Shown: positions 29,235 to 64,000, counted from the first letter of the stretch. The stretch is 64,000 nt of DNA from Spirochaetae bacterium HGW-Spirochaetae-3 (GCA_002839315.1 PGXV01000004.1:98787-162786); one strand, 5' to 3'. Translations and numbers: made by a program. The notes: generated by a model not told the origin, from the sequence alone.

Positions 29235-31157
29235 TCAGTCTAGCACCTGGGCATAGCTAACGCCGGAAATAGAGAAAACGGCGTAGAGGGCTCCGTTCCT
29301 CGACCCTCGGCCCTCGGGCGGCATGACCGCCCCGAAATCGAAGGGCTTCTTCCCGATCCAGACGACCAATCCGCCGGAATCGGGGACGAGGGGCACCGTC
29401 TTGCCGTCTTCCATGACGCCTTCTATACGCCCGTTCCGATAGACGGCCTCTATCACGCGGCCGCGAGGGCTCGTATAGCGGTAAAGGACCGTGCCGTCCG
29501 CGCGAGTCTCGAGCGACATATCGGCAGAACCGTCCCCATCGTAGTCCCAGGACTGAGATCGCGGAACCCCGAGGCCTTCCCGATATTCAAAAAAGCCGTC
29601 TCCGTCGAGGTCGGTCTCGTAATACGCTGGGGCGGGGATTCCGTCTTCGCCGCGGCGCCAGATCCTGCGCGATTCGTAACGGCCGTCCCCGTCGGCGTCG
29701 ACCGTCTCTTCGATAGGCATGCCGCCTCGATAGACCGCGTAACCGATACGACGATACGCGTCCTGCCACCAGGTCCGCGCGGGCTGTCCCTCGAATAGCT
29801 CTACTGTCTCTATACCCGGACCTATTCGCCGGGAGGCGTAGGCGAGGCTGACCGCGCGAGTCTCGGTCGGTAACGGGAGATCGCCGCGAAATACGAAATA
29901 CGGCCCGCCAGGCGCGCCCGTCATGGATTCCATGGACACGAGCGGGACGGGCATCACGGCCGGCCCCAGGGAATACGTCCTCGTCCCGGAATCGTCGGCA
30001 TACTCCAGCGTATCGGCATAGGGCCAGGAGCCGTAGCGTATCGTCACGGTAACGGAGCCGGATACGGCCTTCATGGTCCGCGGTACGCCGGATAAAAACG
30101 ACGATTCGATCTCGGGCTCGCCGTCCTGGTTGACGTCAAGCGCCCAGGCCGCGGGCTGGCCCGAAGCGTACAGGGTCGTAGACTCGGGGATGCCGTCCCT
30201 ATCCTCGTCCCGGGCGATCTCTCCGGAGAAGGAGGAAAACGCCTTGACGAAAAACGCCCTGGATTCACCGCTCGACAAGAGCGCGTAGAGCGTCCGGATC
30301 GACTCTTCGGTCGCCGCGTACCGCCCGGACAACATCTCCCCTACCGCGCGGTCCTCGTCTACGAGGCCGTATTCGAGCGCGAGCACGGTAGCGTCTGCGC
30401 TCGATCGCCCGATGGCCCGGTACTCCCGTACGAGAAGCCGCGACTCGTTCACGGAAGATGCGTACGGAGCCAGGGCTATCAGTGCGTCGGGGTCGATTTC
30501 CTTTATCGCGGCGAGCGCTGCGAATCCGGCGGACACGAGCTCGGCGTCTCCGGCGGACGAAAAGGGACGCTTCGTCGACCGTAGCCACGCTATCAAGGGC
30601 CGTGGATCGACGGGATAGCGGCGGAGCGAGGCGAGCGCGGCGGAACGGGAACCGGCGTCGTCTCCGAGGGCTAGCCTGGCGATCGACTCCACGTACAGAG
30701 CCTCGGCGCTCGGGGGCATGTCGGAGACGAAGCGGAGCGCGTCTTCGGGTCGCCGCGTACGGGCGAGTATGGCCGCGTACAGGAGGCGCGCGTCCTCGGC
30801 CTTATAGAGCCGGAACCCGCCACCCGCCAAGGCTCGCTCCAGCGAGCCGGCGGCCGACGACAGGCTCTCGCCCCCGGAGAGGCCGAGCAATGCACGCAGA
30901 TAGTTAGCGTCGGGATCGGACGGAACGAAGGACAGGGCCTCGTCCAGAAGAGTAACGGCCGCTCCCGCGTAACCGGCCGCGAGCGCGTCTCGGGCGCTGT
31001 TCACTAGGGACGCGCACAGCGCCGCATCGCGCGAGGTCGTATCGGCGAACGAAGGGACGGCAGACGCCAGCGCGAGCGCCAGCGCCGATATGAGCAGTCC
31101 CTTACGCCTCGCTCGTAGCCGGATCGGCGAATCCGAACATAGCCTTGATGTCGTCAT
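29235..31157 (-). CDS. Secreted TPR + Asp-rich (DxDGDG) repeat protein, hypothetical
   Basis: 640 aa. Signal peptide LLISALALALASAVPSFA and an N-terminal TPR-like helical region. The C-terminal half carries repeated calcium-binding-like loops (NQDGEPE, DEDRDGIPE, DADGDGRYE, DLDGDGFFE, DYDGDGSAD). AAGGAG lies ~10 nt upstream of the ATG, inside the ftsH 3' end. Confidence 0.65.
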   Translation of the reverse strand: MTTSRLCSDSPIRLRARRKGLLISALALALASAVPSFADTTSRDAALCASLVNSARDALAAGYAGAAVTLLDEALSFVPSDPDANYLRALLGLSGGESLSSAAGSLERALAGGGFRLYKAEDARLLYAAILARTRRPEDALRFVSDMPPSAEALYVESIARLALGDDAGSRSAALASLRRYPVDPRPLIAWLRSTKRPFSSAGDAELVSAGFAALAAIKEIDPDALIALAPYASSVNESRLLVREYRAIGRSSADATVLALEYGLVDEDRAVGEMLSGRYAATEESIRTLYALLSSGESRAFFVKAFSSFSGEIARDEDRDGIPESTTLYASGQPAAWALDVNQDGEPEIESSFLSGVPRTMKAVSGSVTVTIRYGSWPYADTLEYADDSGTRTYSLGPAVMPVPLVSMESMTGAPGGPYFVFRGDLPLPTETRAVSLAYASRRIGPGIETVELFEGQPARTWWQDAYRRIGYAVYRGGMPIEETVDADGDGRYESRRIWRRGEDGIPAPAYYETDLDGDGFFEYREGLGVPRSQSWDYDGDGSADMSLETRADGTVLYRYTSPRGRVIEAVYRNGRIEGVMEDGKTVPLVPDSGGLVVWIGKKPFDFGAVMPPEGRGSRNGALYAVFSISGVSYAQVLD

Positions 31158-50466: not shown

Positions 50467-52392
50467 TCAGCTTCCGCTCTTCAGGAACGCGTCCTTATAA
50501 CCCATCGCTCGTACCCGTACCAACGCGACGCCGCTTTCGTCCCGGGACAGCGGGCCTACGAAGACGCGCCAGGTATCCTTGCCCTTGTCGCTCGTCTTCT
50601 GGATCAGCACGGTGAATTTCTTGCCTACCCCGCTCGCGGCGTCCTTCGCGACCGATTCGCTCCCGAAGGCGCCTATCTGGATATAATAGCGCCCCTTCTC
50701 CAGGGGACCCGTCACGGCGGGAGCCGTTACGACGGGAGCCGTTACGACGGGAGCCGCCACGACGGGAGCCGCCGGAGGAGTCGTTGTTACAGGCGCCGGA
50801 GCTACGGACGCGACGGGAGGCTTGGGCCCGGTCGGCTCTATAGCCACGATATACTCACGCGGCGATTCAAGCGCGACGGCGGGCGCGGGCTTCTCGGATG
50901 GTCCTTCTACATAGGGAGCCGTTTCGGGCTTCTGCTCCGCGGCTTCCGCCAAGGAGGTTCCAAGCCCCGAATCTACGGGTGACGCGGGTGTCTTAACCTC
51001 GGCCCGGGGTTTTTCCATAGCCTTGGCTTCCGCGTCCTCGAGAGCCACCATCGTCTCGGCGGCGCCATACGCCGGAGTCTCGAGCGCGAGCGCTGACGGT
51101 CCTTCATGCGCAGGTAGAATGATCTCGCCCTCGGCGAGGCTAGTAGCGGGAATTTCATAGATAGGCGCATTGAGGCCGGCGAGCACGATTTCGGGAATTT
51201 CATCGGCTTCGAGCTCTGGCCAGACTAGTTCCGGGCTCAAGCCCGAGGGAGTCCTCGAAGGCGCGAGCCTCGCTATGGCCTCCGCACGCTCCGAAGCGGG
51301 CATCGCCGGGTCCGAAAGGCCGTACTCGCCTTCGTACGCGGAATACTCCGGGGCGAGGCGACTCAACGCGATCGCGCCATCGGACGACGGCGCCGACGGG
51401 TCGTACAGATCCACCGAAGCGGAATCGGCGTACATGTGGGGAGCGGTACGAGCCAACGCCGCGGCCCTGGCGTCAGAAACGGGCACGGGATCGGCTAATG
51501 CCACCGAGTGCGCGCGGCCGGAAGGCGCCTTCGGGCCGTTGGTCGAGATTTCCGGCCTTACGGCCGGCGCTTCGTATCGCTTCGGCGCGAACGATGGCTC
51601 GACGCGTATCGGCGTCTCGTCGGGCTCGGGCACGAGTATGGATACGGCCTCGGGCGCGGGCTCGACCGCCGCGGCGACCGCGGCGGGGGCGGATTGCGAA
51701 GGCTCGGGCAACTGAGGCAATAGTATCGTTCGAACCGGCTTCGGTTTGGCGCTCACCATAGGCACGGGCGTTTCCTCGGCTACGGAAGTCGGTTCGGCGA
51801 CGGCGCTAGGCGCGGCGACGGTTCTCGATGGCTCTATGGCCTTAGGCGCGGTAGCCGGAGCCGGAGCCGGAGCTACCGGGGAAGGCGTAACGGCCGGAGC
51901 CGGAACCTGCGCTATAGGCGCGGTCGACGTCCGGGCTACGGGAGTGGAACCGGTCGGACCCAGTTCATAGCCGAGCCGCCGTAGCTCCGCCGCTGCCAGG
52001 AGGCGCGGGTTAAGATCCGGATCGTGCGACGATATGGAGCCCGACGACGGAGCGAGTTCGACGGCGCTCCTCGGTTCGGACGCCCTGACCCTGACGACGC
52101 GACCTTGCTGCAGGCCAAGCGCATTCGCCGCCTCGACGGAAAGCATCATGAAGACGCCCGAGCTCTCGAGCCCCCTCGTGACGATCGCCGTTATGGAACG
52201 GCCGTTCTCCAGGTTGACGACTTCTATAGAGGTGTTTCGAGGAAAGGAATTGCACGCTGCGTAATATCCGGACGCCGGAAAGTCCCCGTAAGGCCCCATC
52301 ATCGCGCTTCCTTCCCAGGATGACGCCGAAGCGAGGACGACGACCGCCGTCATGCAGGCCGCTAACGCGATGCTATGCCTCTTCATATCCAT
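50467..52392 (-). CDS. rlpA: RlpA-like (DPBB) lytic transglycosylase with long Pro/Ala-rich linker and C-terminal SPOR domain
   Basis: 641 aa. Signal peptide, N-terminal DPBB-like region (YYAACNSFPRNTSIEVVNLENGRSITAIVTRG), a ~400-aa low-complexity P/A/E/S linker, and a SPOR end (YYIQIGAFGSESVAKDAA...WRVFVGPLSRDE). Confidence 0.75.
   Translation of the reverse strand: MDMKRHSIALAACMTAVVVLASASSWEGSAMMGPYGDFPASGYYAACNSFPRNTSIEVVNLENGRSITAIVTRGLESSGVFMMLSVEAANALGLQQGRVVRVRASEPRSAVELAPSSGSISSHDPDLNPRLLAAAELRRLGYELGPTGSTPVARTSTAPIAQVPAPAVTPSPVAPAPAPATAPKAIEPSRTVAAPSAVAEPTSVAEETPVPMVSAKPKPVRTILLPQLPEPSQSAPAAVAAAVEPAPEAVSILVPEPDETPIRVEPSFAPKRYEAPAVRPEISTNGPKAPSGRAHSVALADPVPVSDARAAALARTAPHMYADSASVDLYDPSAPSSDGAIALSRLAPEYSAYEGEYGLSDPAMPASERAEAIARLAPSRTPSGLSPELVWPELEADEIPEIVLAGLNAPIYEIPATSLAEGEIILPAHEGPSALALETPAYGAAETMVALEDAEAKAMEKPRAEVKTPASPVDSGLGTSLAEAAEQKPETAPYVEGPSEKPAPAVALESPREYIVAIEPTGPKPPVASVAPAPVTTTPPAAPVVAAPVVTAPVVTAPAVTGPLEKGRYYIQIGAFGSESVAKDAASGVGKKFTVLIQKTSDKGKDTWRVFVGPLSRDESGVALVRVRAMGYKDAFLKSGS
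50714..50773 (-). repeat. Four tandem 15-bp repeats (ACGACGGGAGCCGTT-like) encoding (A/V)PVVT units
   Basis: Plus strand: acggcgggagccgttacgacgggagccgttacgacgggagccgccacgacgggagccgcc. Confidence 0.85.
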
Positions 52393-52891
52393 ACTTCCTC
52401 CGCGAAGCGCTTACGCCTCGCAATACGCCGCCGCACGCGGCCGAAATGGCCGAACCGAGGGCTGAGCACGCCTTGTCTATTTCAGGACCGGACGTCGTAG
52501 CGGGTACGGCAACGGGAACGCGGCCCCGGGCCAGCTCCTTACCGTCACGTACTCGTACGAGGCGGTAGCTGCATTCGGGGACCGGCGTCCCCTGGCCGTA
52601 TTCGGCGAGGACGACGATGACGTAATCTATCAGGCCTTCTACCGAGGCGCTCCCCGGGGCGTAGCCCAGGAAGGATTCACGGTCGCCGAGGACGGGCCTC
52701 GAATTCGTTCCTATCAATCCGGAATCGAAAAGGCCGTCGAGGACTCCGGAGATGACGAGCTCGGACGAGCGGGTAGCGGCATACGCGCCGTCGAACGCGG
52801 TTTCGACCAGTGCGACCTCGACCGTCTGCGCATATAGCGGAACGATAGCCGACGCAAGCGAGAGAATGGCCGTCATTGCTAGACTCTTCAT
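52373..52891 (-). CDS. Secreted hypothetical protein
   Basis: Probable start MKSLAMTAILSLASAIVPLYAQ (M8 of track ORF 52373..52912). Its 3' end overlaps the rlpA start by 20 nt. No family recognised. Confidence 0.55.
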   Translation of the reverse strand: MKSLAMTAILSLASAIVPLYAQTVEVALVETAFDGAYAATRSSELVISGVLDGLFDSGLIGTNSRPVLGDRESFLGYAPGSASVEGLIDYVIVVLAEYGQGTPVPECSYRLVRVRDGKELARGRVPVAVPATTSGPEIDKACSALGSAISAACGGVLRGVSASRRKYGYEEA

Positions 52892-53072
52892 CGTTCGTAT
52901 CCTTTTCCTCATTATCTATCGGCCGTCTTTTGGAGTAGATTTAGCCGTATCGATAGTCGGCAGGCGTTAATCCGCCGACCGAGGGGCTTATTGCCGTTGC
53001 GCTCGTCTTCGTGATAGTTTTTTCTTCCGTCCGACGATCGTTCCGGGCGGCGATTGCGGAGGATTGCTGTCT

Positions 53073-53633
53073 ATGGACTACTATGCCGTACAGGTATGGA
53101 CGGGCAAGGAAGACGAATTCGCCGAGCGCATGGCGTCGGTTCCGGGTATGGAATCGAGAGCATTGGTCCCGAAGCGCTCTTTGCCGATCAAGCGCGGCGG
53201 CAAGACACGGAATGAGGAACGGCCGCTATTCCCAGGCTACGTCTTCCTGGCGGTTGACTCCGGGGAGCTGAACCGCGAACAGCGATGGGCCCTCCGTTCG
53301 ACGAGGTTCTACGTAAGGACCCTACCGTCGTCAACCGAGCCTCGGCCGGTCAAGGAGAAAGACCGTAGGCTCCTCGCCCACTTCATGTCGTTCGGAAAAG
53401 TTGCCGATATTTCGAAGGTACGCTTCGACGAAGACGATCGCATCGTCGTGGTCGAAGGTCCGCTCAAGGATCTCGAAGGCCTGATCGTAAAGGTCGACAT
53501 CCGCAAGCGCCGGGCCAAGATTCGCCTGGACATGTGCGAGAACTCATTCCTCGTCGATTTGGGTTTCGAGATTCTCGATAGAAAAGCGAAAGGATCCGGC
53601 ATCGACGATGGGCAGCAATCCAGACAATCCTAG
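53073..53633 (+). CDS. Specialised NusG paralog (LoaP/UpxY-like transcription antiterminator)
   Basis: NGN domain (YYAVQVWTGKEDEF...PLFPGYVFL) plus KOW (IVVVEGPLKDLEGLIVKVDIRKRRAKI). First gene of a polysaccharide-type operon. GGAGGA upstream. Confidence 0.8.
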   Translation: MDYYAVQVWTGKEDEFAERMASVPGMESRALVPKRSLPIKRGGKTRNEERPLFPGYVFLAVDSGELNREQRWALRSTRFYVRTLPSSTEPRPVKEKDRRLLAHFMSFGKVADISKVRFDEDDRIVVVEGPLKDLEGLIVKVDIRKRRAKIRLDMCENSFLVDLGFEILDRKAKGSGIDDGQQSRQS

Positions 53634-55095
53634 GGTTTATATCATCGGGGCCGGCTTCGCCGGTCGCGGTATAGCGCGGGAGATACGCGAAAAATCGGTA
53701 TTCGGGTCAATCGTGGCCTTTCTCGACGACGACGAGGCCAAGGTTGGTCGGAGAATAGACGGAGTCCCGGTACTCGGCCCCATCAAGGACGTCGTGCGCC
53801 TTCTCGCGCGGGCTCCGGCGGACGAGGCGATCATCGCGATGCCGAGCGCCTCAAGGGAATTCCTCCGCGAGCTTTACTACCTTCTAAAGGACGCGGGCTT
53901 CTCGCGCATACGCATCGTTCCGGACATCGCGCAGATCGTAGAGGGCGACGCCCACCTGGTCCAGGCGCGCGAGATAGACCCGCAGGATCTGCTCGGGCGC
54001 AGTCCCGTCGCGATAGGGCTGAAGAAAAGCATCCAGTGGCTAGCCGGCAAGCGCGTCATCGTGACGGGGGCGGGCGGTTCTATAGGCTCCGAGCTTTCCC
54101 GCCAGCTGCTTTCGGCGGGAGTGGAACGTCTCTACCTCTTCGGCCACGGAGAGAATTCCATATACCAGATAGACCGCGAGCTCAGGGCGTTACAGGCCGG
54201 GGGCGTCGGCGTCTCCACGGCCATCGTACCCGTCATAGGGGAGCTCAAGGACCGCGACTATATGACCAACGTCTGCAGGCGGCTCAAGGCCGACGTAGTA
54301 TTCCACGCCGCGGCGTACAAGCACGTGCCGATGATGGAGGCAAACACCGTCGCCGCTATAGACAATAACGTGTTCGGCACGAAGAACCTCGTCGACGCCT
54401 GCCTAAGCTCGGGCGTCAAGCGCTTCGTACTCGTAAGCACCGACAAGGCCGTCGAACCGCTCTGCGTCTACGGCGCGTCGAAGTACATTTCGGAGCGCAT
54501 CGTCATGGACGCGCAGGCGAAGGCGGGGCGGGACGAGCATTATATGGTGGTCCGCTTCGGAAACGTGCTCGGCTCCCGTGGATCGATACTGCCGCTCTTC
54601 ATGCAACAGGTGTCGCGCGGCGGGCCGGTAACCGTTACCGATCCTCTCGCCAGCCGGTTCTTCATGACGATACCCGAGGCATGCTCGCTCGTTCTCAAGG
54701 CCGGCGGCGTCGGCTCGGGGGGGGAATCGTATCTTTTGGACATGGGCGACCCCATCCTGATACGGGAGCTCGCCGAACAGGTCATCCGATTCTCCGGGTT
54801 CGTTCCCTACGACGATATAAAGATAGACTATATCGGGCTCCGTCCGGGAGAGCGGCTGGCGGAGAAGCTCTTCGCCGACGACGAGAGCCTCGAACCGACC
54901 GATTTCCCGAGGATTAACAGGCTGGAGCGCGGCGGGAGCGGGTTCGACCTCGCCAAGGCGCTCGAAGCGCTCGGCCCGATATGCTTCCTCGACGGGTCGA
55001 GGCCTGAATCGTACCGCAATCGCAGGTTGCTCAGAGGGGCGCTGAGATCATTCGTACCTACGGTAGAGGAGACTCAAGATGAACCGGAATACTGA
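53608..55095 (+). CDS. CapD/PglF/WbpM-type nucleotide-sugar 4,6-dehydratase (soluble form)
   Basis: 495 aa. N-terminal Rossmann-like domain (VYIIGAGFAGRG) and SDR core VTGAGGSIGSEL...YGASKYISE. Confidence 0.85.
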   Translation: MGSNPDNPRVYIIGAGFAGRGIAREIREKSVFGSIVAFLDDDEAKVGRRIDGVPVLGPIKDVVRLLARAPADEAIIAMPSASREFLRELYYLLKDAGFSRIRIVPDIAQIVEGDAHLVQAREIDPQDLLGRSPVAIGLKKSIQWLAGKRVIVTGAGGSIGSELSRQLLSAGVERLYLFGHGENSIYQIDRELRALQAGGVGVSTAIVPVIGELKDRDYMTNVCRRLKADVVFHAAAYKHVPMMEANTVAAIDNNVFGTKNLVDACLSSGVKRFVLVSTDKAVEPLCVYGASKYISERIVMDAQAKAGRDEHYMVVRFGNVLGSRGSILPLFMQQVSRGGPVTVTDPLASRFFMTIPEACSLVLKAGGVGSGGESYLLDMGDPILIRELAEQVIRFSGFVPYDDIKIDYIGLRPGERLAEKLFADDESLEPTDFPRINRLERGGSGFDLAKALEALGPICFLDGSRPESYRNRRLLRGALRSFVPTVEETQDEPEY

Positions 55096-56266
55096 TTTTA
55101 TCGCCTTCGCCAGGCCCTCCCTGGGGGAGGAAGAAGAGGAAGCGGTCCTTCGCGTCCTGCGTTCCGGTTGGTTGACGACGGGCTCGGAGACGCTCTCCTT
55201 CGAGAGGGAATTCGGGGAATTCGTCGGAACGCCCCACGCGCTGGCGGTCAACTCGGCGACGAGCGGCCTCCATCTGGCGCTCGAGGCCATCGGGATAGGC
55301 CCGGGGGACGTCGTCGCGACCAGCCCCTACACCTTCACGTCGACGGCGGCCGTCGTAAGGCATCTCGGCGCCGAGGTAGCGTTCTGCGACGTAGCCCCGG
55401 GGTCGTATAACATCGACCTCGACTCCCTGGGCAGGCTTCTGTCGACGACGAAGAACTGCCGCGCCATCATAGCCGTCCATGTGGGCGGCCTTCCCTGCGA
55501 CATGCGATCGATACGGGCCCTCGCCAAGCGCTACGGCTGCGCGCTCGTCGAGGACGCGGCCCATTCGTTCCCTTCCGTCACCGAGGAAGGATACGCCGGG
55601 ACTCTCGGCGACGTCGGCGTTTATTCGTTCTACGCGACCAAGACGATCACTACCGGAGAGGGAGGGATGCTGGTCACGAAGGACGATCGCGTCGCCGCCA
55701 GGGCCGAGAAAATGCGCATGCACGGGTTCGATCGCGCCGCCTGGGACCGCTATACGGCCAAGAAGGCCTCGTGGCGCTACGCCGTGACGGAAGCCGGCTT
55801 CAAGTACAACATGCCGGACCTGCTCGCCGCCATAGGTCGCGTCCAGCTCAGGAAGGCGAACCGTTTCCTGGAGGAGCGGCGAGCTATCGCCGAGGTATAC
55901 GACGCGGCGTTCTCCGGCGTCCCGGGCCTCGAGTTACCTCCGCGCGGCGAGGGCCATGCCTGGCACCTCTACTCCCTGAGGACGAGGAGCGACAGGGGCG
56001 GCGTCGCCCGCGACGACCTCGTCGAGGCGCTCTCCGAACGCGGCGTCGGTTCGTCCGTGCACTTCATCCCGCTCCATACGATGCCGTACTACGCGGAGCG
56101 CTATCGGCTAACGCCCGAATCCTTTCCTAACGCCAGCTCGATGTTCGAGCGGACGCTCAGCCTCCCGATATGGCAAGGCATGGGCGTCGGCGTAGCTGAG
56201 CGCGTCGCCGAAGCGGTCTTGGAGATTACCGGAGTACCCGGATCGCATTCAAGGCGCGATGTATGA
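55079..56266 (+). CDS. DegT/DnrJ/EryC1/StrS family PLP-dependent sugar aminotransferase
   Basis: 395 aa. LTTGSETLSFEREF, VEDAAHS and SFYATKTITTGEGGM (PLP lysine motif). Confidence 0.9.
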   Translation: MNRNTDFIAFARPSLGEEEEEAVLRVLRSGWLTTGSETLSFEREFGEFVGTPHALAVNSATSGLHLALEAIGIGPGDVVATSPYTFTSTAAVVRHLGAEVAFCDVAPGSYNIDLDSLGRLLSTTKNCRAIIAVHVGGLPCDMRSIRALAKRYGCALVEDAAHSFPSVTEEGYAGTLGDVGVYSFYATKTITTGEGGMLVTKDDRVAARAEKMRMHGFDRAAWDRYTAKKASWRYAVTEAGFKYNMPDLLAAIGRVQLRKANRFLEERRAIAEVYDAAFSGVPGLELPPRGEGHAWHLYSLRTRSDRGGVARDDLVEALSERGVGSSVHFIPLHTMPYYAERYRLTPESFPNASSMFERTLSLPIWQGMGVGVAERVAEAVLEITGVPGSHSRRDV

Positions 56267-58326
56267 AAAACGCTCCGGCGAGCAGGCTACCGTCGATTTC
56301 CCGCCTCTCCGACTTTCCGAGGATGGAAGCGGTATACGTCGGGACGGTCCGCTCGCCGGTATCACGCGGCACAGTCGTGTCGATGAGCCTACCGCACTTG
56401 CCCCGCGAATATAGAAGCATCACGGCAGACGACATCCCCGGCGCCCGGTTCCTGGACGTCAACGGCGCGTCCGTGCCGGTACTCGCGTCGGGAAGCGTAG
56501 CGTATAAGGGAGAGCCCCTCGCTCTGATCGTCGGTCCCGACAAGCGCAAGGTCGCCGCGGCCATCGAGATGACCAGGGTGAGGGTCGACGAGGCGGCGGC
56601 CGAATACTCCTTCGAAACCTGCGACTCGTCGCGAGTCGCCGCCGGAGAGCGATTCGAATCAGGCGACGTCGAGTCCGCGTTCAAGGCGGCCGCGCGCGTA
56701 GTGGAGGGCGACTACCGCGTCGGTCCGCAGGATCATTACTATTCCGAGCCCCAGGGCTCGGCGGCAGCCTACGATTACGACAAGCTCGTCGTTTTCTCGT
56801 CGACGCAGTGGCCGTTCCACGTCAGGGACGCGGTAGCCGCGACGCTTGGCGTCAAGAAGGACGAGGTCATCGTCCGCCCGACGCTCCTCGGTACTCATCT
56901 CGACGGCAAGCTATGGTACCCTTCCCTGCTCGCATGCCACGCTTCGCTCGCGGCGGTCATCTGCGGCCGGCCGGCGATGATCCTCCTCTCCCGGAAGGAG
57001 GATTTCCTGTATACGACCAAACGCGCGCCGATACTCGCATCGTACCGGGCCGGCATGGACGAATCGGGGCGGCTCGTCGCGCTCGACGCGAGGATCATGG
57101 TCAACTTCGGAGCGTACGCCCCCTTCGCGGATCGTATTATCGGCCGGTCGATGCGCTCGGCGGCCGGAGGCTACGCCTGTCCGAATGTCAGGATCACCGC
57201 GAAGGCCGTCATAACGGACCTGCCGCCGATGGGAGCGTTCGTGGGCCTCGGCACCGGACCCGTGACGTTCGCCGTCGAGCGCCTCGCGGAAGACTGCGCG
57301 TCGGCCGCCGAACAGGACCCTTCCGAATGGAGATCCGCCAACGCCGCCGGCAGGAATGATTCGACGCTCGGCTCTCCGCTCAAGAAGGCGGCGCCCTACG
57401 ACGCCCTCGCCGAGCGCCTGCTGGCGATGAGCGACTATCCGCGCAAGCGATCGTCGTTCGAGCTGATACGCAAACGGCGAGCCGATCCTTCGGCGGTCCC
57501 CGGATACGGCATCGGCCTGGCGTTTGGCCCCCAACTATCGGCCAACGTATTCGGCCGCGACGGTTCCGAGTCGCCCTCCGTCGAGGTTACACTAACGAAG
57601 GATTCCTCGTTGATCATCCAGACCAGCCTCATTCCGGGATCGCGATCGACGGCCGCTATCTGGAAGGAACTAGCCGCCGCTCCGCTCGGCCTGCATCCCG
57701 ACTCGGTAACCATCATGTCCTCGGGAACGGATACCGTTCCCGATTCTGGCCCGGACGCGCTATCCAGGAATATCACCGTCGTGACCAAGCTGATAGAATC
57801 GGCGGCGACCGGCCTCGCGTCGAAGCGTTTCAGGGAGGCGCTGCCCATAACCGTAAAAAAGACGTCGCGGGCGCGAAGGTCGAAGGCGGCGCCCGTGTCC
57901 CCGCTCGATGACTCGTCCTGGGGCGGCGCGGTAGTAGAGATGGAACTGGACGCGGTAGACGGCCGCCCGATGGTCCGCGGCGTCTGGCTGGCGATAAAGG
58001 CCGGCAGGATCCTGTCCAGGAAGGCCGCCGCAACGTCCGTCGAGCATGACGCGGCGCTCGCCCTGGGGCTCTGCCTCGGCGAGCGGCTCGACCTGTCCTC
58101 GGGCCCGGCGGGAGAGGACGCATTGCACCAGTATCGCCTTCCCCGAATCAAGGATATTCCAAACATCTCGGTCGAATTCATAGAAGACGATTCCGAGCCG
58201 CGAGGCCTCAGCGAGCTCGCCTGCGCGCTGGTACCGCCGGCTTTCGCCAACGCGCTTAGCCAGGCCCTCGACGCTCCATGGAATACCATGCCGCGGGTCG
58301 ACGAAGAGTCGGGAGACGGCGGATGA
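56263..58326 (+). CDS. Xanthine dehydrogenase/aldehyde oxidase family large subunit homolog with divergent Moco motifs
   Basis: 687 aa. a/b-hammerhead (ADDIPGARF..VAYKGEPLALIVG) plus the Ald_Xan_dh_C2 pattern (FSSTQWPF..., SRKEDFLYTTKRAP, PPAFANAL). ATGA overlap with the degT-like stop. Confidence 0.75.
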   Translation: MKNAPASRLPSISRLSDFPRMEAVYVGTVRSPVSRGTVVSMSLPHLPREYRSITADDIPGARFLDVNGASVPVLASGSVAYKGEPLALIVGPDKRKVAAAIEMTRVRVDEAAAEYSFETCDSSRVAAGERFESGDVESAFKAAARVVEGDYRVGPQDHYYSEPQGSAAAYDYDKLVVFSSTQWPFHVRDAVAATLGVKKDEVIVRPTLLGTHLDGKLWYPSLLACHASLAAVICGRPAMILLSRKEDFLYTTKRAPILASYRAGMDESGRLVALDARIMVNFGAYAPFADRIIGRSMRSAAGGYACPNVRITAKAVITDLPPMGAFVGLGTGPVTFAVERLAEDCASAAEQDPSEWRSANAAGRNDSTLGSPLKKAAPYDALAERLLAMSDYPRKRSSFELIRKRRADPSAVPGYGIGLAFGPQLSANVFGRDGSESPSVEVTLTKDSSLIIQTSLIPGSRSTAAIWKELAAAPLGLHPDSVTIMSSGTDTVPDSGPDALSRNITVVTKLIESAATGLASKRFREALPITVKKTSRARRSKAAPVSPLDDSSWGGAVVEMELDAVDGRPMVRGVWLAIKAGRILSRKAAATSVEHDAALALGLCLGERLDLSSGPAGEDALHQYRLPRIKDIPNISVEFIEDDSEPRGLSELACALVPPAFANALSQALDAPWNTMPRVDEESGDGG

Positions 58327-58808
58327 TCGTCGAATTCATCCTGAACGGCGAGGATGTCAGCCTCAAGGCGGATCCGCTCGAGCGACTATCCGACCTGCTG
58401 CGGGATCGGTTCGGACTCTCAAGCCTCATGAGCGATTGCCTGGAAGGCATCTGCGGGAAGTGCGTCGTCTTCCTGAACGGCAGGCTCGTCAACTCGTGCC
58501 TCGTTCCCGCCTTCAAGGTCAGGGGATCCGAGGTAATCACGTACGAAGGATTCAAGAGCACCGACGCGCACGAAGCCGTGGCCCGAGCGTTCGAGGAAGC
58601 CGGGGTCGAACTCTGCGGATTCTGCGACGCGGCCATGTTCCTGGCGACGGCTTCTCTCCTGGAATCCAACGAGAGACCGACGGACGAAGATATAAAGGAG
58701 ACCATGTCATCGATCTATTGCCGGTGCACGACGCCCTCGATCACGCTCAAGGCGGTACGAGGCGTCATAGAGTCCAAGATGGGCGGGAAGTACGACCGTG
58801 CGCGTTGA
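58323..58808 (+). CDS. [2Fe-2S]-binding small subunit of XDH/CODH family
   Basis: 161 aa from MIVEFILNG. Both cluster motifs are intact: C-x4-C-x2-C-x11-C (CLEGICGKC...C) and CGFC...CRC. ATGA overlap upstream. Confidence 0.85.
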   Translation: MIVEFILNGEDVSLKADPLERLSDLLRDRFGLSSLMSDCLEGICGKCVVFLNGRLVNSCLVPAFKVRGSEVITYEGFKSTDAHEAVARAFEEAGVELCGFCDAAMFLATASLLESNERPTDEDIKETMSSIYCRCTTPSITLKAVRGVIESKMGGKYDRAR

Positions 58809-59640
58809 CGACGTAGCGGCCCCTCAGACGCTCGCGGAGGCCATCTCGATCCTGAAGCGAAGACCTGAAGTGATCCCCTGGGCTGGCGGCACGCTCCTGA
58901 TGACCATCGGCGACGAGGCGGGAGGAGGCAAGCCCGTCTCGGTGCTCGACCTGGGCCGGATACCGGAACTCTCGGTCGTCAGCAGGTCGGATCGGTACCT
59001 GGAGATCGGCGCCTGCGTATCGCTGTCGACGATACTCGCGCTACCGCCCAGCCTGTCGCTACAGCCCCTCAGGTCAGCGGCAGGGTTCATAGGCACGGCG
59101 ACCGTTCGCAACCTCGCTACGATAGGCGGCAACATAGCGTCACGCAATTCATTCATGAGCTGCTTCTCCGCGCTCGTGTGCATGGACGCGGCCGTGGAGC
59201 TTAGGGACGCGTCGGGTTCCCGGTGGTCGGGTATGCACGCACTGATGAACGAGGATAACCGTCCGCGATTCCCATCGGCTTCGTTGCTTACGCGCATACG
59301 CATTCCCACGGCCCCGTGGGACGCCACCGTCCTGTACCGGCTCGGCGAGGCGACGAGCCAGGAACCGTACGCGGCGTCGTTCGCCGCCGCGGCGCGTTTC
59401 GAGAAAGAGATGATATCCGAACTCAGGATTGTCGCCGCCGGCAGGCGCATCGTCAGGGACCGCGCCCTCGAGCTGTCACTCGTCGGGAAGCGTCTGCCGA
59501 TCTCCCAGAAGGACGCCGAGGCAGCGAGGGCGGTAGCCAAGGCGAGGGCTATGGAAGCCGGTTTCGGCGATGGTACTGCCGGGCTCTATGGAGAGTACCT
59601 GGCCGCTTTCCTGTCCGGCGTTCAGGAGGAAGGTCTATGA
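58798..59640 (+). CDS. FAD-binding medium subunit of XDH/CODH family (FAD_binding_5)
   Basis: 280 aa with a GTG start. WAGGTLLM and VRNLATIGGNIAS motifs. Confidence 0.8.
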   Translation: MRVDDVAAPQTLAEAISILKRRPEVIPWAGGTLLMTIGDEAGGGKPVSVLDLGRIPELSVVSRSDRYLEIGACVSLSTILALPPSLSLQPLRSAAGFIGTATVRNLATIGGNIASRNSFMSCFSALVCMDAAVELRDASGSRWSGMHALMNEDNRPRFPSASLLTRIRIPTAPWDATVLYRLGEATSQEPYAASFAAAARFEKEMISELRIVAAGRRIVRDRALELSLVGKRLPISQKDAEAARAVAKARAMEAGFGDGTAGLYGEYLAAFLSGVQEEGL

Positions 59641-60467
59641 GCGGCGTCCTGTACCTCGTGCCCGTACCGATAGGCGACGGCTCGCCCTTGGACGAATTGG
59701 CTCCCAGGGTAATCCGGACCGTATCCGGTATCAGGGATTTCGTCGTAGAGAACGAGAGGAGCGCCAGGCGCTTCCTGTCTAGGGTAATGCCCCAGGAAGC
59801 GCTCGACGCCTCCCGGCTCCGCATCCTCGACGAGCATACCCGGCCGGAGGACCTCGACGGATTGCTCGAGCCGCTCGTTGAGGGCAGGGACGCGGCGGTC
59901 ATATCCGAGGCGGGAAGCCCCTGCGTAGCGGACCCGGGCGCGGCTCTGGTCGCGGCCGCGTCCCGGGCGGGGATAGTATCGATACCCTTGCCCGGGCCCA
60001 GCGCCGTCCTGATGGCCATCATGGCCTCGGGCCTCGGAGGCCAACGATTCTCGTTCAGGGGCTACCTGCCGCCCGATCCCGCGGGTAGGGAGGCAGCGCT
60101 CAGGGAGCTAGAATCCCTGTCCGCGAGGGACGGCTCTACGCAGGTGTTCATCGAGACGCCGTACCGGAACGACGCGATGGCCGCGACCGCCGCAAAGGCA
60201 CTCGCCGGCGCCACCATTCTCTGCACGGCGACGGGGCTTTCCACGCCTGGCGAGAGGGTGATCCGGATGGAAGCGGCGGCATGGAAGAAGAATCTCCCGA
60301 CGATCGGCAAGACGCCGACCGTGTTCCTGCTATCAGCCGCGGGATCGGCGGGAACGACCTCGCAACCGACGCGATCCGCGCCGCGAGGCCAGTCGCGAGG
60401 GACCGCGCCCGTCAAGGGACGCGGGCGAAACGCCCCGAAGCATACCGCGAGACGGCATGACGCTTGA
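59637..60467 (+). CDS. Tetrapyrrole-methylase-fold SAM-dependent methyltransferase (RsmI-like)
   Basis: 276 aa from MSGVLYLVPVPIGDGS.., with ISEAGSPCVADPG, GPSAVLMAIMASGL and VFIETPYR motifs. Arg/Lys-rich C-terminal tail. ATGA overlap with the FAD-subunit stop. Confidence 0.7.
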   Translation: MSGVLYLVPVPIGDGSPLDELAPRVIRTVSGIRDFVVENERSARRFLSRVMPQEALDASRLRILDEHTRPEDLDGLLEPLVEGRDAAVISEAGSPCVADPGAALVAAASRAGIVSIPLPGPSAVLMAIMASGLGGQRFSFRGYLPPDPAGREAALRELESLSARDGSTQVFIETPYRNDAMAATAAKALAGATILCTATGLSTPGERVIRMEAAAWKKNLPTIGKTPTVFLLSAAGSAGTTSQPTRSAPRGQSRGTAPVKGRGRNAPKHTARRHDA

Positions 60468-60500
60468 CGATTCTCCATTGCCGGTTACACTGGTACGAGT

Positions 60501-61366
60501 ATGCAGACCCAAATAGATCTACACGCACAATATGAAAACGTAATCGCATCGATCAACCCGTTCGCTCAGGCGAGGATGGGGCTCAAGCCGGGGCAAACGG
60601 TCGTAAAGCTGGATACCTACAGCATCATATGCGTTCCGTACCGCCTGACGATGAACGGGGCGGTACTGATCGCGTCGTTCTCCAGCGAAGAGCTGTCGTT
60701 CTTCCAGCGCTACGTCAACGGACTCGCCGGGCTGACCCTTATTTTCCAGCCGGGCGGAACCCAGAACCCGCTCAAGATATTCGCCAGGTGCGTCCTCCGC
60801 TCGGTAAGCCCGATGAAGGGACGCGAATCCATAGGGCTCATCGACGTAGCGTTCAAGCCCTGCCCGCCCGACCTCGAGACCATACTGATCGATTACTTCA
60901 TGCTTATGGATAGGCTTAAGGTGGAGTACGACGACTTCAAGGGCAAGCCCATATCGATCAACCCCGACAGCGCCAAGGCCATGGGCTACAATAATTATTC
61001 GATGCTCGCCTCCGAGGGCGCCCAAGCGAAGGTCGCCCTGTTCGCGCTCGCCAGCGACTCCCTCGACTTCCTCGTGCCGATGAACGGGCCGACCCTCGTA
61101 CAGGGCAAGCCTATGCAGATGAAACTGTTCTTCCAGAGCTACCAGTTCACCGTGCCGGGGTCGATAGCGAGCGTAACCACGTTGCAGAACGGGGTGCAGA
61201 AGGCGCGGGCCTCGATACAGTTCTCGTCGGAGCTCGTGTCCATCATCGAGCAGTACCGGTTCGCGGAGCGGTTCAGCGCCAAGGCCGCCCAAGCCGCCCC
61301 GACCTCCCAGTCGTCGGCGCCTCCCGGTTCCATGAAGAGGCCGGCTCCCGGTCCGATCCGAGGCGC

Positions 61367-61370
<4 letters not shown>
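60501..61370 (+). CDS. Hypothetical protein (beta-rich, two similar halves; low-complexity tail)
   Basis: 289 aa with coding-like composition. No catalytic or binding motif recognised. Converges on and overlaps the mfd stop by 4 nt. Confidence 0.55.

Positions 61371-64000
<2,630 letters not shown>

Follow-up and report, generated by a model that had tools for sequence, protein, structure and literature searches.

A conserved operon of Treponema-type spirochaetes that places a xanthine-dehydrogenase-like trio with a predicted rebuilt molybdenum site behind LoaP and amino-sugar genes

In addition to dehydratases and aminotransferases, some bacterial deoxysugar pathways make use of further redox chemistry. 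The E1/E3 and DesI/DesII systems act on nucleotide-4-keto or 4-amino-6-deoxy sugars, with E1/E3 carrying out the C-3 deoxygenation of 3,6-dideoxyhexoses. In the pathway to pseudaminic acid (Pse), the nitrogen at position 7 (N7) comes from the amine put in by a PseC-type step. In Treponema denticola, the FlaB flagellins carry a Pse-type nonulosonate that bears a 2-methoxy-4,5,6-trihydroxy-hexanoyl N-acyl group (PMC13439194), and the flagellin glycan is essential for filament assembly (PMC9481697). Candidate PseI/LegI-type synthases of Treponema pallidum and T. denticola were included in a complementation survey (bioRxiv 10.1101/2022.03.25.485807). At the level of transcription, the NusG paralog LoaP of Bacillus velezensis needs both a leader hairpin with a UNCG tetraloop and a NusA-dependent leader terminator, and LoaP genes are reported to be widespread in Spirochaetota (PMC12691694). 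Here, we describe a block of seven plus-strand genes (53073-60467) in a 64,000-nt stretch of Spirochaetae bacterium HGW-Spirochaetae-3 (GCA_002839315.1 PGXV01000004.1:98787-162786), the whole of which we call the window. The block joins a loaP gene and two amino-sugar genes to the genes of a xanthine-dehydrogenase (XDH)-like trio, and we report the order of its genes, their translational coupling, their linkage across the phylum and the purifying selection on them, together with the pattern of retained and lost cofactor motifs. The unit is an ancient chromosomal operon of Treponema-type spirochaetes with the core loaP-pglF-degT-xdhL-xdhS-xdhM, into which, judging from its sequences, an XDH-family heterotrimer with a rebuilt molybdenum (Mo) site has been recruited.

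The block opens with loaP (53073-53633; 186 aa), which encodes a LoaP-type NusG paralog (NF033641). It is followed by pglF (53608-55095; 495 aa), for a predicted soluble PglF/CapD-type NAD-dependent UDP-N-acetylhexosamine (UDP-HexNAc) 4,6-dehydratase (Polysacc_synt_2), and by degT (55079-56266; 395 aa), for a predicted pyridoxal phosphate (PLP)-dependent nucleotide-sugar 4-aminotransferase (DegT_DnrJ_EryC1, PF01041). The trio comprises xdhL (56263-58326; 687 aa; MoCoBD_1), for a large subunit with the XDH/aldehyde-oxidoreductase fold and a remodelled Mo site, xdhS (58323-58808; 161 aa; Fer2_2 and Fer2), for a small subunit with two [2Fe-2S] clusters, and xdhM (58798-59640; 280 aa, GTG start; FAD_binding_5), for a CoxM/XdhB-like medium subunit that binds flavin adenine dinucleotide (FAD). 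A TP-methylase gene (59637-60467; 276 aa; TP_methylase) comes last. All seven genes are translationally coupled by overlaps, in gene order, of 26, 17, 4 (ATGA), 4 (ATGA), 11 and 4 (ATGA) nt, and a consensus scan found no promoter- or terminator-like site inside the block above shuffled expectation. From this arrangement we infer that the genes are co-transcribed. Compared with close relatives, every gene of the operon has a dN/dS of 0.07-0.27, with dS saturated, indicating that the trio is under purifying selection and is not decaying. The surroundings give no sign of a foreign island, as G+C is even at ~0.60-0.65 along the window, and the 33 larger open reading frames (ORFs) scanned in the window encode mostly core housekeeping proteins (TamB, SecA, ClpB, FtsH, TilS, Obg, NadD-like, ArgS, LigA and Mfd). 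An earlier note on this DNA, made from the sequence alone, had proposed a single operon-like unit of seven plus-strand genes chained by these overlaps, with these domains and with no acetyltransferase, synthase or glycosyltransferase after degT. Its genes and overlaps match ours exactly, its domain assignments agree with the Pfam and NCBIfam matches, and none of those three enzyme types lies within the operon. The unity of the block is likewise upheld by the overlaps, by synteny across the phylum, and by the lack, in the consensus scan, of an internal promoter or terminator parting degT from xdhL.

The strongest evidence that the block exceeds a chance arrangement is its recurrence in other genomes. 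A word-indexed search with XdhL (E<=1e-10) returned 394 relatives; of the matches with an organism name, all but one have a label beginning with Spirochaet- or Treponema-, and the window XdhL is 100% identical to a protein of the HGW-Spirochaetae-3 metagenome-assembled genome. An exhaustive representative search revealed a continuum of ~690-aa XdhL proteins down to ~28% identity. When one genome per GTDB species was scanned with the family motif [LM]DG[KR]LWYP[SA] and a 15-sequence alignment, 163 relatives were found; among the best 80 of these, every one with a taxon name belongs to Spirochaetota. Eleven window proteins were then compared by tblastn with all fetched loci, and the counts that follow were made on 83 non-redundant loci, 69 of which have at least 3.6 kb upstream, while 74 could be counted for xdhS and xdhM and 66 contain enough sequence for the methylase gene. 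Upstream of xdhL, loaP is present in 68/69 loci, pglF in 66/69 and degT in 65/69, with all three together in 64/69; downstream, xdhS and xdhM are present in 74/74. The same gene order and orientation is found in ~90 spirochaete genomes, so the linkage noticed earlier in a single genome extends across the phylum. In eight gene-called orthologous loci, degT and xdhL overlap by at most 4 nt or lie at most 47 nt apart. Moreover, the six-gene core is kept within other flanks, with queA-ruvBAC in place of mfd (L004 and L005), with TRAP-transporter and tRNA-methyltransferase genes upstream (L087, XdhL 31% identical), or with dnaE downstream (L090, XdhL 30% identical). Among cultured strains, the block is found in Treponema primitia ZAS-2 (CP001843.1) as well as in Breznakiella homolactica RmG30 (L050), and Leadbettera azotonutricia has an XdhL homolog. 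One ortholog (P0035, in L002/L003) is labelled 'Clostridia bacterium' by its source. This label of a metagenome-assembled genome is probably a binning or taxonomy error, given that the flanks are of spirochaete type (SPOR, PilZN3, mfd and a TP_0454_C protein).

XdhL retains the fold of the Mo hydroxylases together with a systematically altered cofactor site. It matches MoCoBD_1 with 193 bits and, more weakly, MoCoBD_2 and Ald_Xan_dh_C, and its AlphaFold2 model (pLDDT 89, pTM 0.90) resembles Desulfovibrio gigas MOP (1SIJ), bovine xanthine oxidase (1FIQ) and Rhodobacter capsulatus XDH (1JRO) at Foldseek TM scores of 0.83-0.87 and ~21% identity. To describe the site, residues of XdhL were compared with R. 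capsulatus XDH and the canonical relatives P0241, P0245 and P0248, and conservation was assessed over 157 family members. Three signatures of molybdenum cofactor (Moco) binding are lost across 157-233 members of the family, whereas the three canonical relatives keep the motifs. The loop RMGGGFGGK-E, in which the Glu is bovine E802, is replaced by L-G-x-H-L-D-G-K-L-W-Y-P with newly conserved His, Asp and Trp, and the equivalent of the purine-binding bovine Glu802 is Leu. In A(F/Y)R(G/C), the universal Arg (bovine R912) becomes A, G, S, T or V (V327 in the window), and the pterin-contacting (E)MGQG motif is variable. At these three sites the window XdhL reads LGTHLDGKL, AFVGLG and LIPGSR, and distant members vary greatly at the motif positions, as in P0166 with SYSPPSYASKIWYPA. 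Other elements of the site are retained. Q182, within a TQWP motif, corresponds by the 1JRO alignment to bovine Q767, the Mo-proximal Gln, and is conserved in 95% of the 157 members. E651 is assigned by MAFFT alignment with the canonical relatives to the catalytic Glu (bovine E1261) and is conserved in 86%. The R880 equivalent, R295, is kept as R or Q, and the T..P..GP...S loop common to the canonical relatives is kept as well. In the partner subunits, all eight [2Fe-2S] Cys of XdhS (39, 44, 47, 59, 98, 101, 133 and 135) are conserved in 77/77 distinct orthologs, and XdhM matches FAD_binding_5 with 101 bits, its AGGT and RN.AT.GGN motifs showing at least 90% conservation over 74 orthologs. Conservation is poor in the C-terminal third of XdhM, and no CO_deh_flav_C match was found with Pfam.

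The two enzymes encoded ahead of the trio resemble well-known amino-sugar enzymes. The dehydratase matches Polysacc_synt_2 with 357 bits, its best solved relative is Campylobacter jejuni PglF/WlaL (5BJU, 219 bits), and the TGAGGSIGSE and TDK...YG..K motifs are conserved in 67 orthologs. Its N-terminal 120 aa form a CoA_binding_3-type domain, and no transmembrane segment is predicted (maximal Kyte-Doolittle value over 19 residues, 1.39). DegT matches PF01041 with 387 bits; among solved structures its best relative is ArnB (1MDO, 261 bits), followed by TlmJ, with PseC at 140 bits and PglE at 111 bits. Neither protein reaches the model cutoffs of its characterised counterparts: the dehydratase scores 185 bits against the PseB model (TIGR03589; cutoff 408), and DegT scores 346 against PseC (TIGR03588; 423.5) and 310 against ArnB (631). 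These scores lower the claim that the two proteins are PseB and PseC, not the claim that they work like them. Across 69 orthologs, the Schiff-base Lys of DegT, within SFYATK, shows at least 95% conservation, which indicates a true aminotransferase rather than an E1/ColD-type dehydrase. We also considered membership in the E1/E3 type of deoxygenation system and rejected it, as DegT keeps the Lys and scores 151 against the RfbH model (cutoff 423).

Together, these features suggest a pathway. Transcription would start at a conserved extended -10 promoter, and the LoaP-class NusG paralog, going by its family, would load on RNA polymerase and sustain elongation through the 7.4-kb unit. The soluble PglF-type dehydratase would convert UDP-HexNAc to its 4-keto-6-deoxy form, as characterised homologs do, and the Lys-containing DegT, by analogy with well-characterised homologs, would aminate C4 to give UDP-4-amino-4,6-dideoxy-HexNAc. 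The XDH-fold heterotrimer would perform a redox step of the same glycan pathway, with electrons passing via FAD and the two [2Fe-2S] clusters to or from the remodelled XdhL site, where the Gln/Glu pair of the Mo hydroxylases is kept and the canonical pterin-binding signatures are not. The most likely destination would be a nonulosonic-acid (pseudaminic-like) glycan on treponemal FlaB flagellins, with the trio making or modifying the sugar or its unusual N-acyl group. We regard this reading, a six-gene glycan-pathway operon in which the XDH-scaffold trio performs a linked redox step, likely toward flagellin nonulosonate, as evenly poised, its substrates, electron direction and target glycan being those we infer from the homologs and the gene order. 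The flagellin nonulosonate glycan is our leading guess for the pathway of the trio. The acyl group of the T. denticola nonulosonate is presumably attached at N7. In gene order, a PseC-type amination is the step directly before the trio. No description of genes that build this odd acyl group was found in the literature searched, and the operon is a concrete candidate for them. A more specific version, which we consider improbable, would have the XDH scaffold fully repurposed: the XdhL pocket, without classical Moco, would bind a UDP- or CMP-linked 4-amino sugar, and the FAD/[2Fe-2S] chain would oxidise a glycosylamine or hemiaminal formed from the amine and an aldose, thereby installing the polyhydroxy-hexanoyl N-acyl group without ATP, with the 1WYZ-type methylase described below supplying the O-methyl group in some clades. 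If true, such a repurposed scaffold would amount to a new class of enzyme, one that even the minimal genome of T. pallidum has kept.

Several observations weigh against a shared pathway of the trio and the sugar genes. Three loci (L046, L066 and L083) have loaP directly before xdhLSM with no pglF or degT at the locus, L066 being otherwise syntenic with the window (argS-ligA-SPOR, loaP, then methylase and mfd). Two others (L084 and L085) read loaP-pglF-xdhLSM and lack degT, and L067 and the P0143 contig read degT-xdhLSM without loaP or pglF. From these variants, the trio emerges as the constant element and each partner gene as locally dispensable. In addition, SPOR, the small lipoprotein-like ORF, PilZN3 and mfd are also syntenic in many loci, so conserved order in this region cannot alone prove that the genes share a function. 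Neither the operon nor the set of 33 larger window ORFs scanned includes an acyltransferase, a NeuB-type synthase, a CMP-transferase or a glycosyltransferase, NeuB lies in the wider neighbourhood only in L004 and L005, no biochemical precedent for an XDH-family enzyme acting on nucleotide sugars was found in the literature searched, and the searches for a LoaP recognition element detailed below (UNCG hairpins in the window and 72 further loci; Rfam) did not find one. The retained Gln and Glu of XdhL are compatible with an ordinary Moco enzyme acting on an unrelated small molecule. One could therefore regard the trio as a self-standing FeS-flavo-(molybdo)enzyme for an aldehyde, an N-heterocycle or an aromatic acyl-CoA, perhaps working reductively with ferredoxin like 4-hydroxybenzoyl-CoA reductase, whose co-transcription with sugar genes reflects only frozen gene order. 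The intact XDH fold, the conserved Mo-proximal Gln and catalytic Glu, the loaP-xdhLSM loci and the synteny of unrelated neighbours (SPOR, PilZN3, mfd, ligA and argS) would all fit such an enzyme. However, the six-gene core survives wholly different flanks, degT and xdhL overlap by at most 4 nt or lie at most 47 nt apart in every gene-called locus, and a dedicated LoaP paralog heads the unit in nearly all loci with sufficient upstream sequence. Furthermore, XdhL has lost the universal Arg, the GGGFG loop and the GQG motif, and the unit lacks XdhC or Moco-maturation genes of the kind seen beside the canonical relative in L088. On balance we find a self-standing enzyme, the main rival reading, unlikely, though it deserves serious consideration.

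The changes in XdhL bear on two further explanations. The trio might be an ordinary purine-catabolic XDH or a periplasmic-type aldehyde oxidoreductase that lies beside sugar genes by chance, as its best NCBIfam matches are pucD, pucE and pucC/XdhB and its top structural neighbours are XDH and aldehyde oxidoreductase. These matches are, however, far too weak for such an assignment: XdhL scores 201 against pucD, its best equivalog (cutoff 784), and is far below the cutoffs of all 13 large-subunit models, XdhS scores 116 against pucE (254), and XdhM scores 59 against pucC/XdhB (306). The Leu at the position of Glu802 also speaks against it, as does the lack of uricase, allantoinase, amidohydrolase and XdhC genes in these operons. 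A real XDH cluster looks different. At L088 (1-18058), P0241 is 29% identical to the window XdhL and keeps all canonical motifs, and it is encoded in a purine/pyrimidine-catabolic cluster with MoaA, MoaC, MOSC, three amidohydrolases, a dihydroorotate-dehydrogenase-like protein, a second fused XDH and XdhC. As an outgroup, P0241 marks the boundary of the spirochaete XdhL subfamily. On scores, motifs and gene context we reject the ordinary XDH, which we hold to be very improbable indeed, and with it falls the identification as an ordinary purine or aldehyde oxidoreductase that, by the earlier note, would have refuted its proposal. Alternatively, XdhL might bind no Moco at all and act as a substrate-binding or scaffold subunit, or hold another ligand in the former dinucleotide pocket, with the FAD and [2Fe-2S] subunits performing redox chemistry for the sugar pathway. 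This would account for the loss of three signatures while the FeS and FAD ligands are invariant, and for the variability at the motif positions in distant members (P0166, SYSPPSYASKIWYPA). No Moco genes were found among the 33 window ORFs, which is also in its favour, as is the published retention of the genes in T. pallidum. In the re-annotation of T. pallidum SS14, TPASS_0079 is an XDH Mo-binding protein and TPASS_0081 an FAD-binding protein, and TPASS_0086, in an equivalent neighbourhood, is a PilZ protein (PMC5951579, PMC4403809). On the basis of this re-annotation, T. pallidum apparently carries the XDH-like genes of the operon. We take TP0077 to be cap5D, TP0078 to be spsC and TP0080 to be 'qor'/quinoline 2-oxidoreductase, which would be compatible with TPASS_0079 and TPASS_0081. 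To our knowledge, the reduced T. pallidum genome has no Moco biosynthesis genes, and if that is so, retention of the trio there would argue for Moco independence. On the other side, the conservation of Q182, E651 and the T..P..GP...S loop is unexpected for an empty pocket, and the cofactor would be available in termite-gut treponemes such as T. primitia, which use Mo/W enzymes. A Moco-free XdhL seems to us rather unlikely. Between these explanations, we continue to favour the redox step in an amino-sugar pathway, set out above, as the working interpretation of the operon.

The gene that heads the operon belongs to the LoaP class by sequence. Its product scores 148 bits against NF033641 (antiterm_LoaP), above the cutoff of 125, compared with 56 for NusG, 45 for UpxY and 36 for RfaH. 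It contains the NusG NGN domain (PF02357, E=1e-10, residues 1-98) and a weak KOW domain at residues 121-145, which is clearer in the LoaP ortholog of L066, and it is presumably a processive antiterminator of its own operon. A sigma-70-type promoter is predicted at 52991-53020 on the plus strand, with the -35 element TTGCCG (52991-52996), an 18-nt spacer holding the extended -10 TG (53012-53013), and the -10 element TAGTTT (53015-53020). The pattern TTGcc-N17/18-TGnTAnnnT recurs at the corresponding position before loaP in the majority of 73 aligned orthologous upstream regions, and we predict it to be the conserved extended -10 promoter of the operon. A generic consensus scan missed this site because its -35 element is weak. 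For loaP itself, the ATG at 53073 is preferred over the TTG at 53064 as the start, given the GGAGG Shine-Dalgarno sequence at 53058-53062, 10 nt upstream of the ATG.

The 5' leader would thus be ~46 nt long (53027-53072, plus strand) and contain a hairpin, a GGCGAU element conserved in the clade of the window, and the Shine-Dalgarno sequence. The earlier note had suggested two hairpins upstream of loaP as the cis element read by the NusG paralog. Both exist, at 52956-52979 (hairpin 1) and at 53027-53050 (hairpin 2; CCGTCCG, 53027-53033, and CGGGCGG, 53044-53050), yet neither qualifies as a conserved LoaP element, since hairpin 1 is upstream of the promoter and hairpin 2 is specific to the clade, being conserved in close relatives only. 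Hairpin 1 as a LoaP element is rejected on its place upstream of the conserved promoter and its absence from the closest relatives. A hairpin followed by GGCGAU is seen in the closest relatives (L007-L009, L015 and L017), and in the minimum-free-energy fold of the window leader, CUUCC pairs with the Shine-Dalgarno sequence and sequesters it. We do not claim a conserved leader structure, as RNAalifold on eight leaders gave a weak consensus (-2.0 kcal/mol, one compensatory pair) and single-sequence folds vary among relatives. In most lineages outside the clade of the window, the loaP ATG lies only 6-14 nt beyond the -10 element, which implies leaderless or nearly leaderless loaP mRNAs. The leader with its Shine-Dalgarno sequence and sequestering fold would accordingly be a gain of this clade, in place of the near-leaderless arrangement. 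The recruitment element known for LoaP was not found: no UNCG loop closed by a stem of 4 bp or longer lies between -150 and +700 around loaP in the window, UNCG hairpins in 72 orthologous loci are scattered matches of which none is positionally conserved, an Rfam scan of 52000-61500 returned only a chance mir-130 match, and no leader terminator was seen in the consensus scan.

The last gene of the block is not a constant member of the operon. The earlier note had described seven genes ending in an RsmI-like methylase; the core of six, from loaP to xdhM, stands, whereas the methylase follows xdhM in 41/66 loci and unrelated genes occupy this place in the others. Nor is the protein a true RsmI. 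It matches TP_methylase with 43 bits, its best solved relative is 1WYZ, an uncharacterised Bacteroides protein (192 bits, residues 3-232), and true RsmI (5HW4, 9PZG) reaches 87 bits over residues 2-177 only. Against TIGR00096 (RsmI) it scores 95, below the cutoff of 168, with residues 4-181 covered. We therefore reject a housekeeping RsmI on the cutoff and on the N-terminal extent of the alignment, and read the protein instead as a 1WYZ-type RsmI paralog, a predicted S-adenosylmethionine (SAM)-dependent, lineage-specific add-on to the six-gene core. Its residues 237-276 form a ~40-aa tail rich in Arg, Pro, Gly and Thr (…GTTSQPTRSAPRGQSRGTAPVKGRGRNAPKHTARRHDA) that is absent or not conserved in orthologs and 1WYZ. 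In termite-gut treponemes, a DHQ-synthase-like gene of the sugar-phosphate-cyclase superfamily and a gene for an unknown 524-543-aa protein replace the methylase gene (L089 13608-22091 in T. primitia ZAS-2; L067 13586-18076; also L065, L070, L081 and L084). Phosphonate genes come further downstream in T. primitia, where the encoded proteins are a fusion of cytidylyltransferase and phosphoenolpyruvate mutase, a thiamine-pyrophosphate enzyme resembling phosphonopyruvate decarboxylase, an NTP-transferase/aminotransferase fusion and a UDP-glucose dehydrogenase. These gene sets suggest clade-specific modules for glycan tailoring.

Outside the operon, a PilZN3-domain, PlzA-like gene (60501-61370, plus strand) follows after a gap of 33 nt, and a promoter-like site of its own (TTGACG-16-TACACT, 60464-60491) lies in this gap. 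The gene is conserved downstream of the operon in many loci, and its product probably binds cyclic di-GMP, judging from its domain. Next comes mfd (61367-64000, minus strand), an 835-aa ORF that aligns with residues 270-1146 of the Mfd of L001. It is cut by the window rather than truncated, as the reading frame runs on to the window end. Immediately before the operon, most loci, that of T. primitia among them, have a divergent gene pair (50467-52912), which in the window consists of a signal-peptide/lipoprotein-like ORF (52373-52912, minus strand; 179 aa) with no Pfam match and a gene for a SPOR-domain, RlpA-like protein (50467-52392, minus strand; 641 aa). The 5' portion of the divergent minus-strand transcript would take in hairpin 1. 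Elsewhere in the window, the FtsH/TilS genes and a 282-aa ORF flank a 640-aa ORF (29235-31157, minus strand), which has a high GC3 (0.76) and no match in Pfam at E<=1e-5.

The genes of this operon have been public for decades under generic labels such as 'xanthine dehydrogenase family protein', 'CO/xanthine dehydrogenase Mo-binding subunit' and 'hypothetical'. It had been put forward as a candidate novel operon, which holds as regards the lack of functional characterisation but not as regards its existence, already visible in databases and, through TPASS_0079 and TPASS_0081, in T. pallidum (PMC5951579). No report on the association of the trio with sugar genes or on the altered Mo site was found in the literature searched. 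Purifying selection maintains the family, a conserved XDH-fold FeS-flavoprotein whose Mo site is systematically altered, throughout Treponema-type spirochaetes; by re-annotation, it is also present in the ~1.1-Mb genome of the syphilis agent. It offers a natural experiment on the Mo-hydroxylase scaffold with a rebuilt cofactor site. That its genes follow those of a dehydratase/aminotransferase pair and of a dedicated antiterminator is a pointer to glycan biosynthesis, with a possible link to flagellin glycosylation and motility. The operon also presents a LoaP system without a recognisable RNA recruitment hairpin.

Each part of the operon has a described counterpart from which it departs in a specific way. 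Like the LoaP of B. velezensis (dfn and mln operons), the LoaP protein passes the curated cutoff, combines NGN and KOW domains and is encoded with a long biosynthetic operon, but loaP here heads the very operon that it would act on, no UNCG leader hairpin is detectable in the window or in 72 orthologous loci, and many lineages appear near-leaderless. The methylase shares the TP_methylase fold and the N-terminal SAM-binding half with RsmI (the 16S rRNA C1402 2'-O-methyltransferase) and the 1WYZ family, yet it aligns over its full length with 1WYZ and only over the N-terminal ~175 residues with RsmI, and it is not constant in the operon. The sugar enzymes follow the order of Campylobacter PglF/PglE (bacillosamine), PseB/PseC and ArnB, a dehydratase and then a PLP aminotransferase on a UDP-4-keto sugar, with the TDK/YxxxK motifs and the Lys kept. 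In contrast to PglF and CapD, the dehydratase lacks the membrane domain, and unlike in the Campylobacter Pgl and Pse pathways, the genes that come next encode not PglD/PseH acetyltransferase, PseG, PseI or PseF but the XDH-like trio. In its logic, the set of a 4,6-dehydratase, a DegT-family enzyme and a [2Fe-2S]/flavin partner recalls E1/E3 (AscC/AscD, RfbH) and DesI/DesII. However, E1, ColD and SpnQ have His at the Schiff-base position where DegT has Lys, and the reductase has a three-subunit architecture of XDH type, whereas E3 is of ferredoxin-NADP-reductase type. Finally, the trio shares the large, small and medium subunit set, the fold, the eight Cys, the FAD motifs and the Gln and Glu with the Mo hydroxylases of the xanthine-oxidase family (R. 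capsulatus XDH, Bacillus subtilis PucCDE, CoxLMS, quinoline 2-oxidoreductase and HcrABC). It differs from them in falling below the equivalog cutoffs, in the three altered signatures, in an XdhL ~70-100 aa shorter than their large subunits, in a medium subunit without detectable CO_deh_flav_C, and in its setting, with no adjacent XdhC or Moco genes and embedded in a nucleotide-sugar operon.

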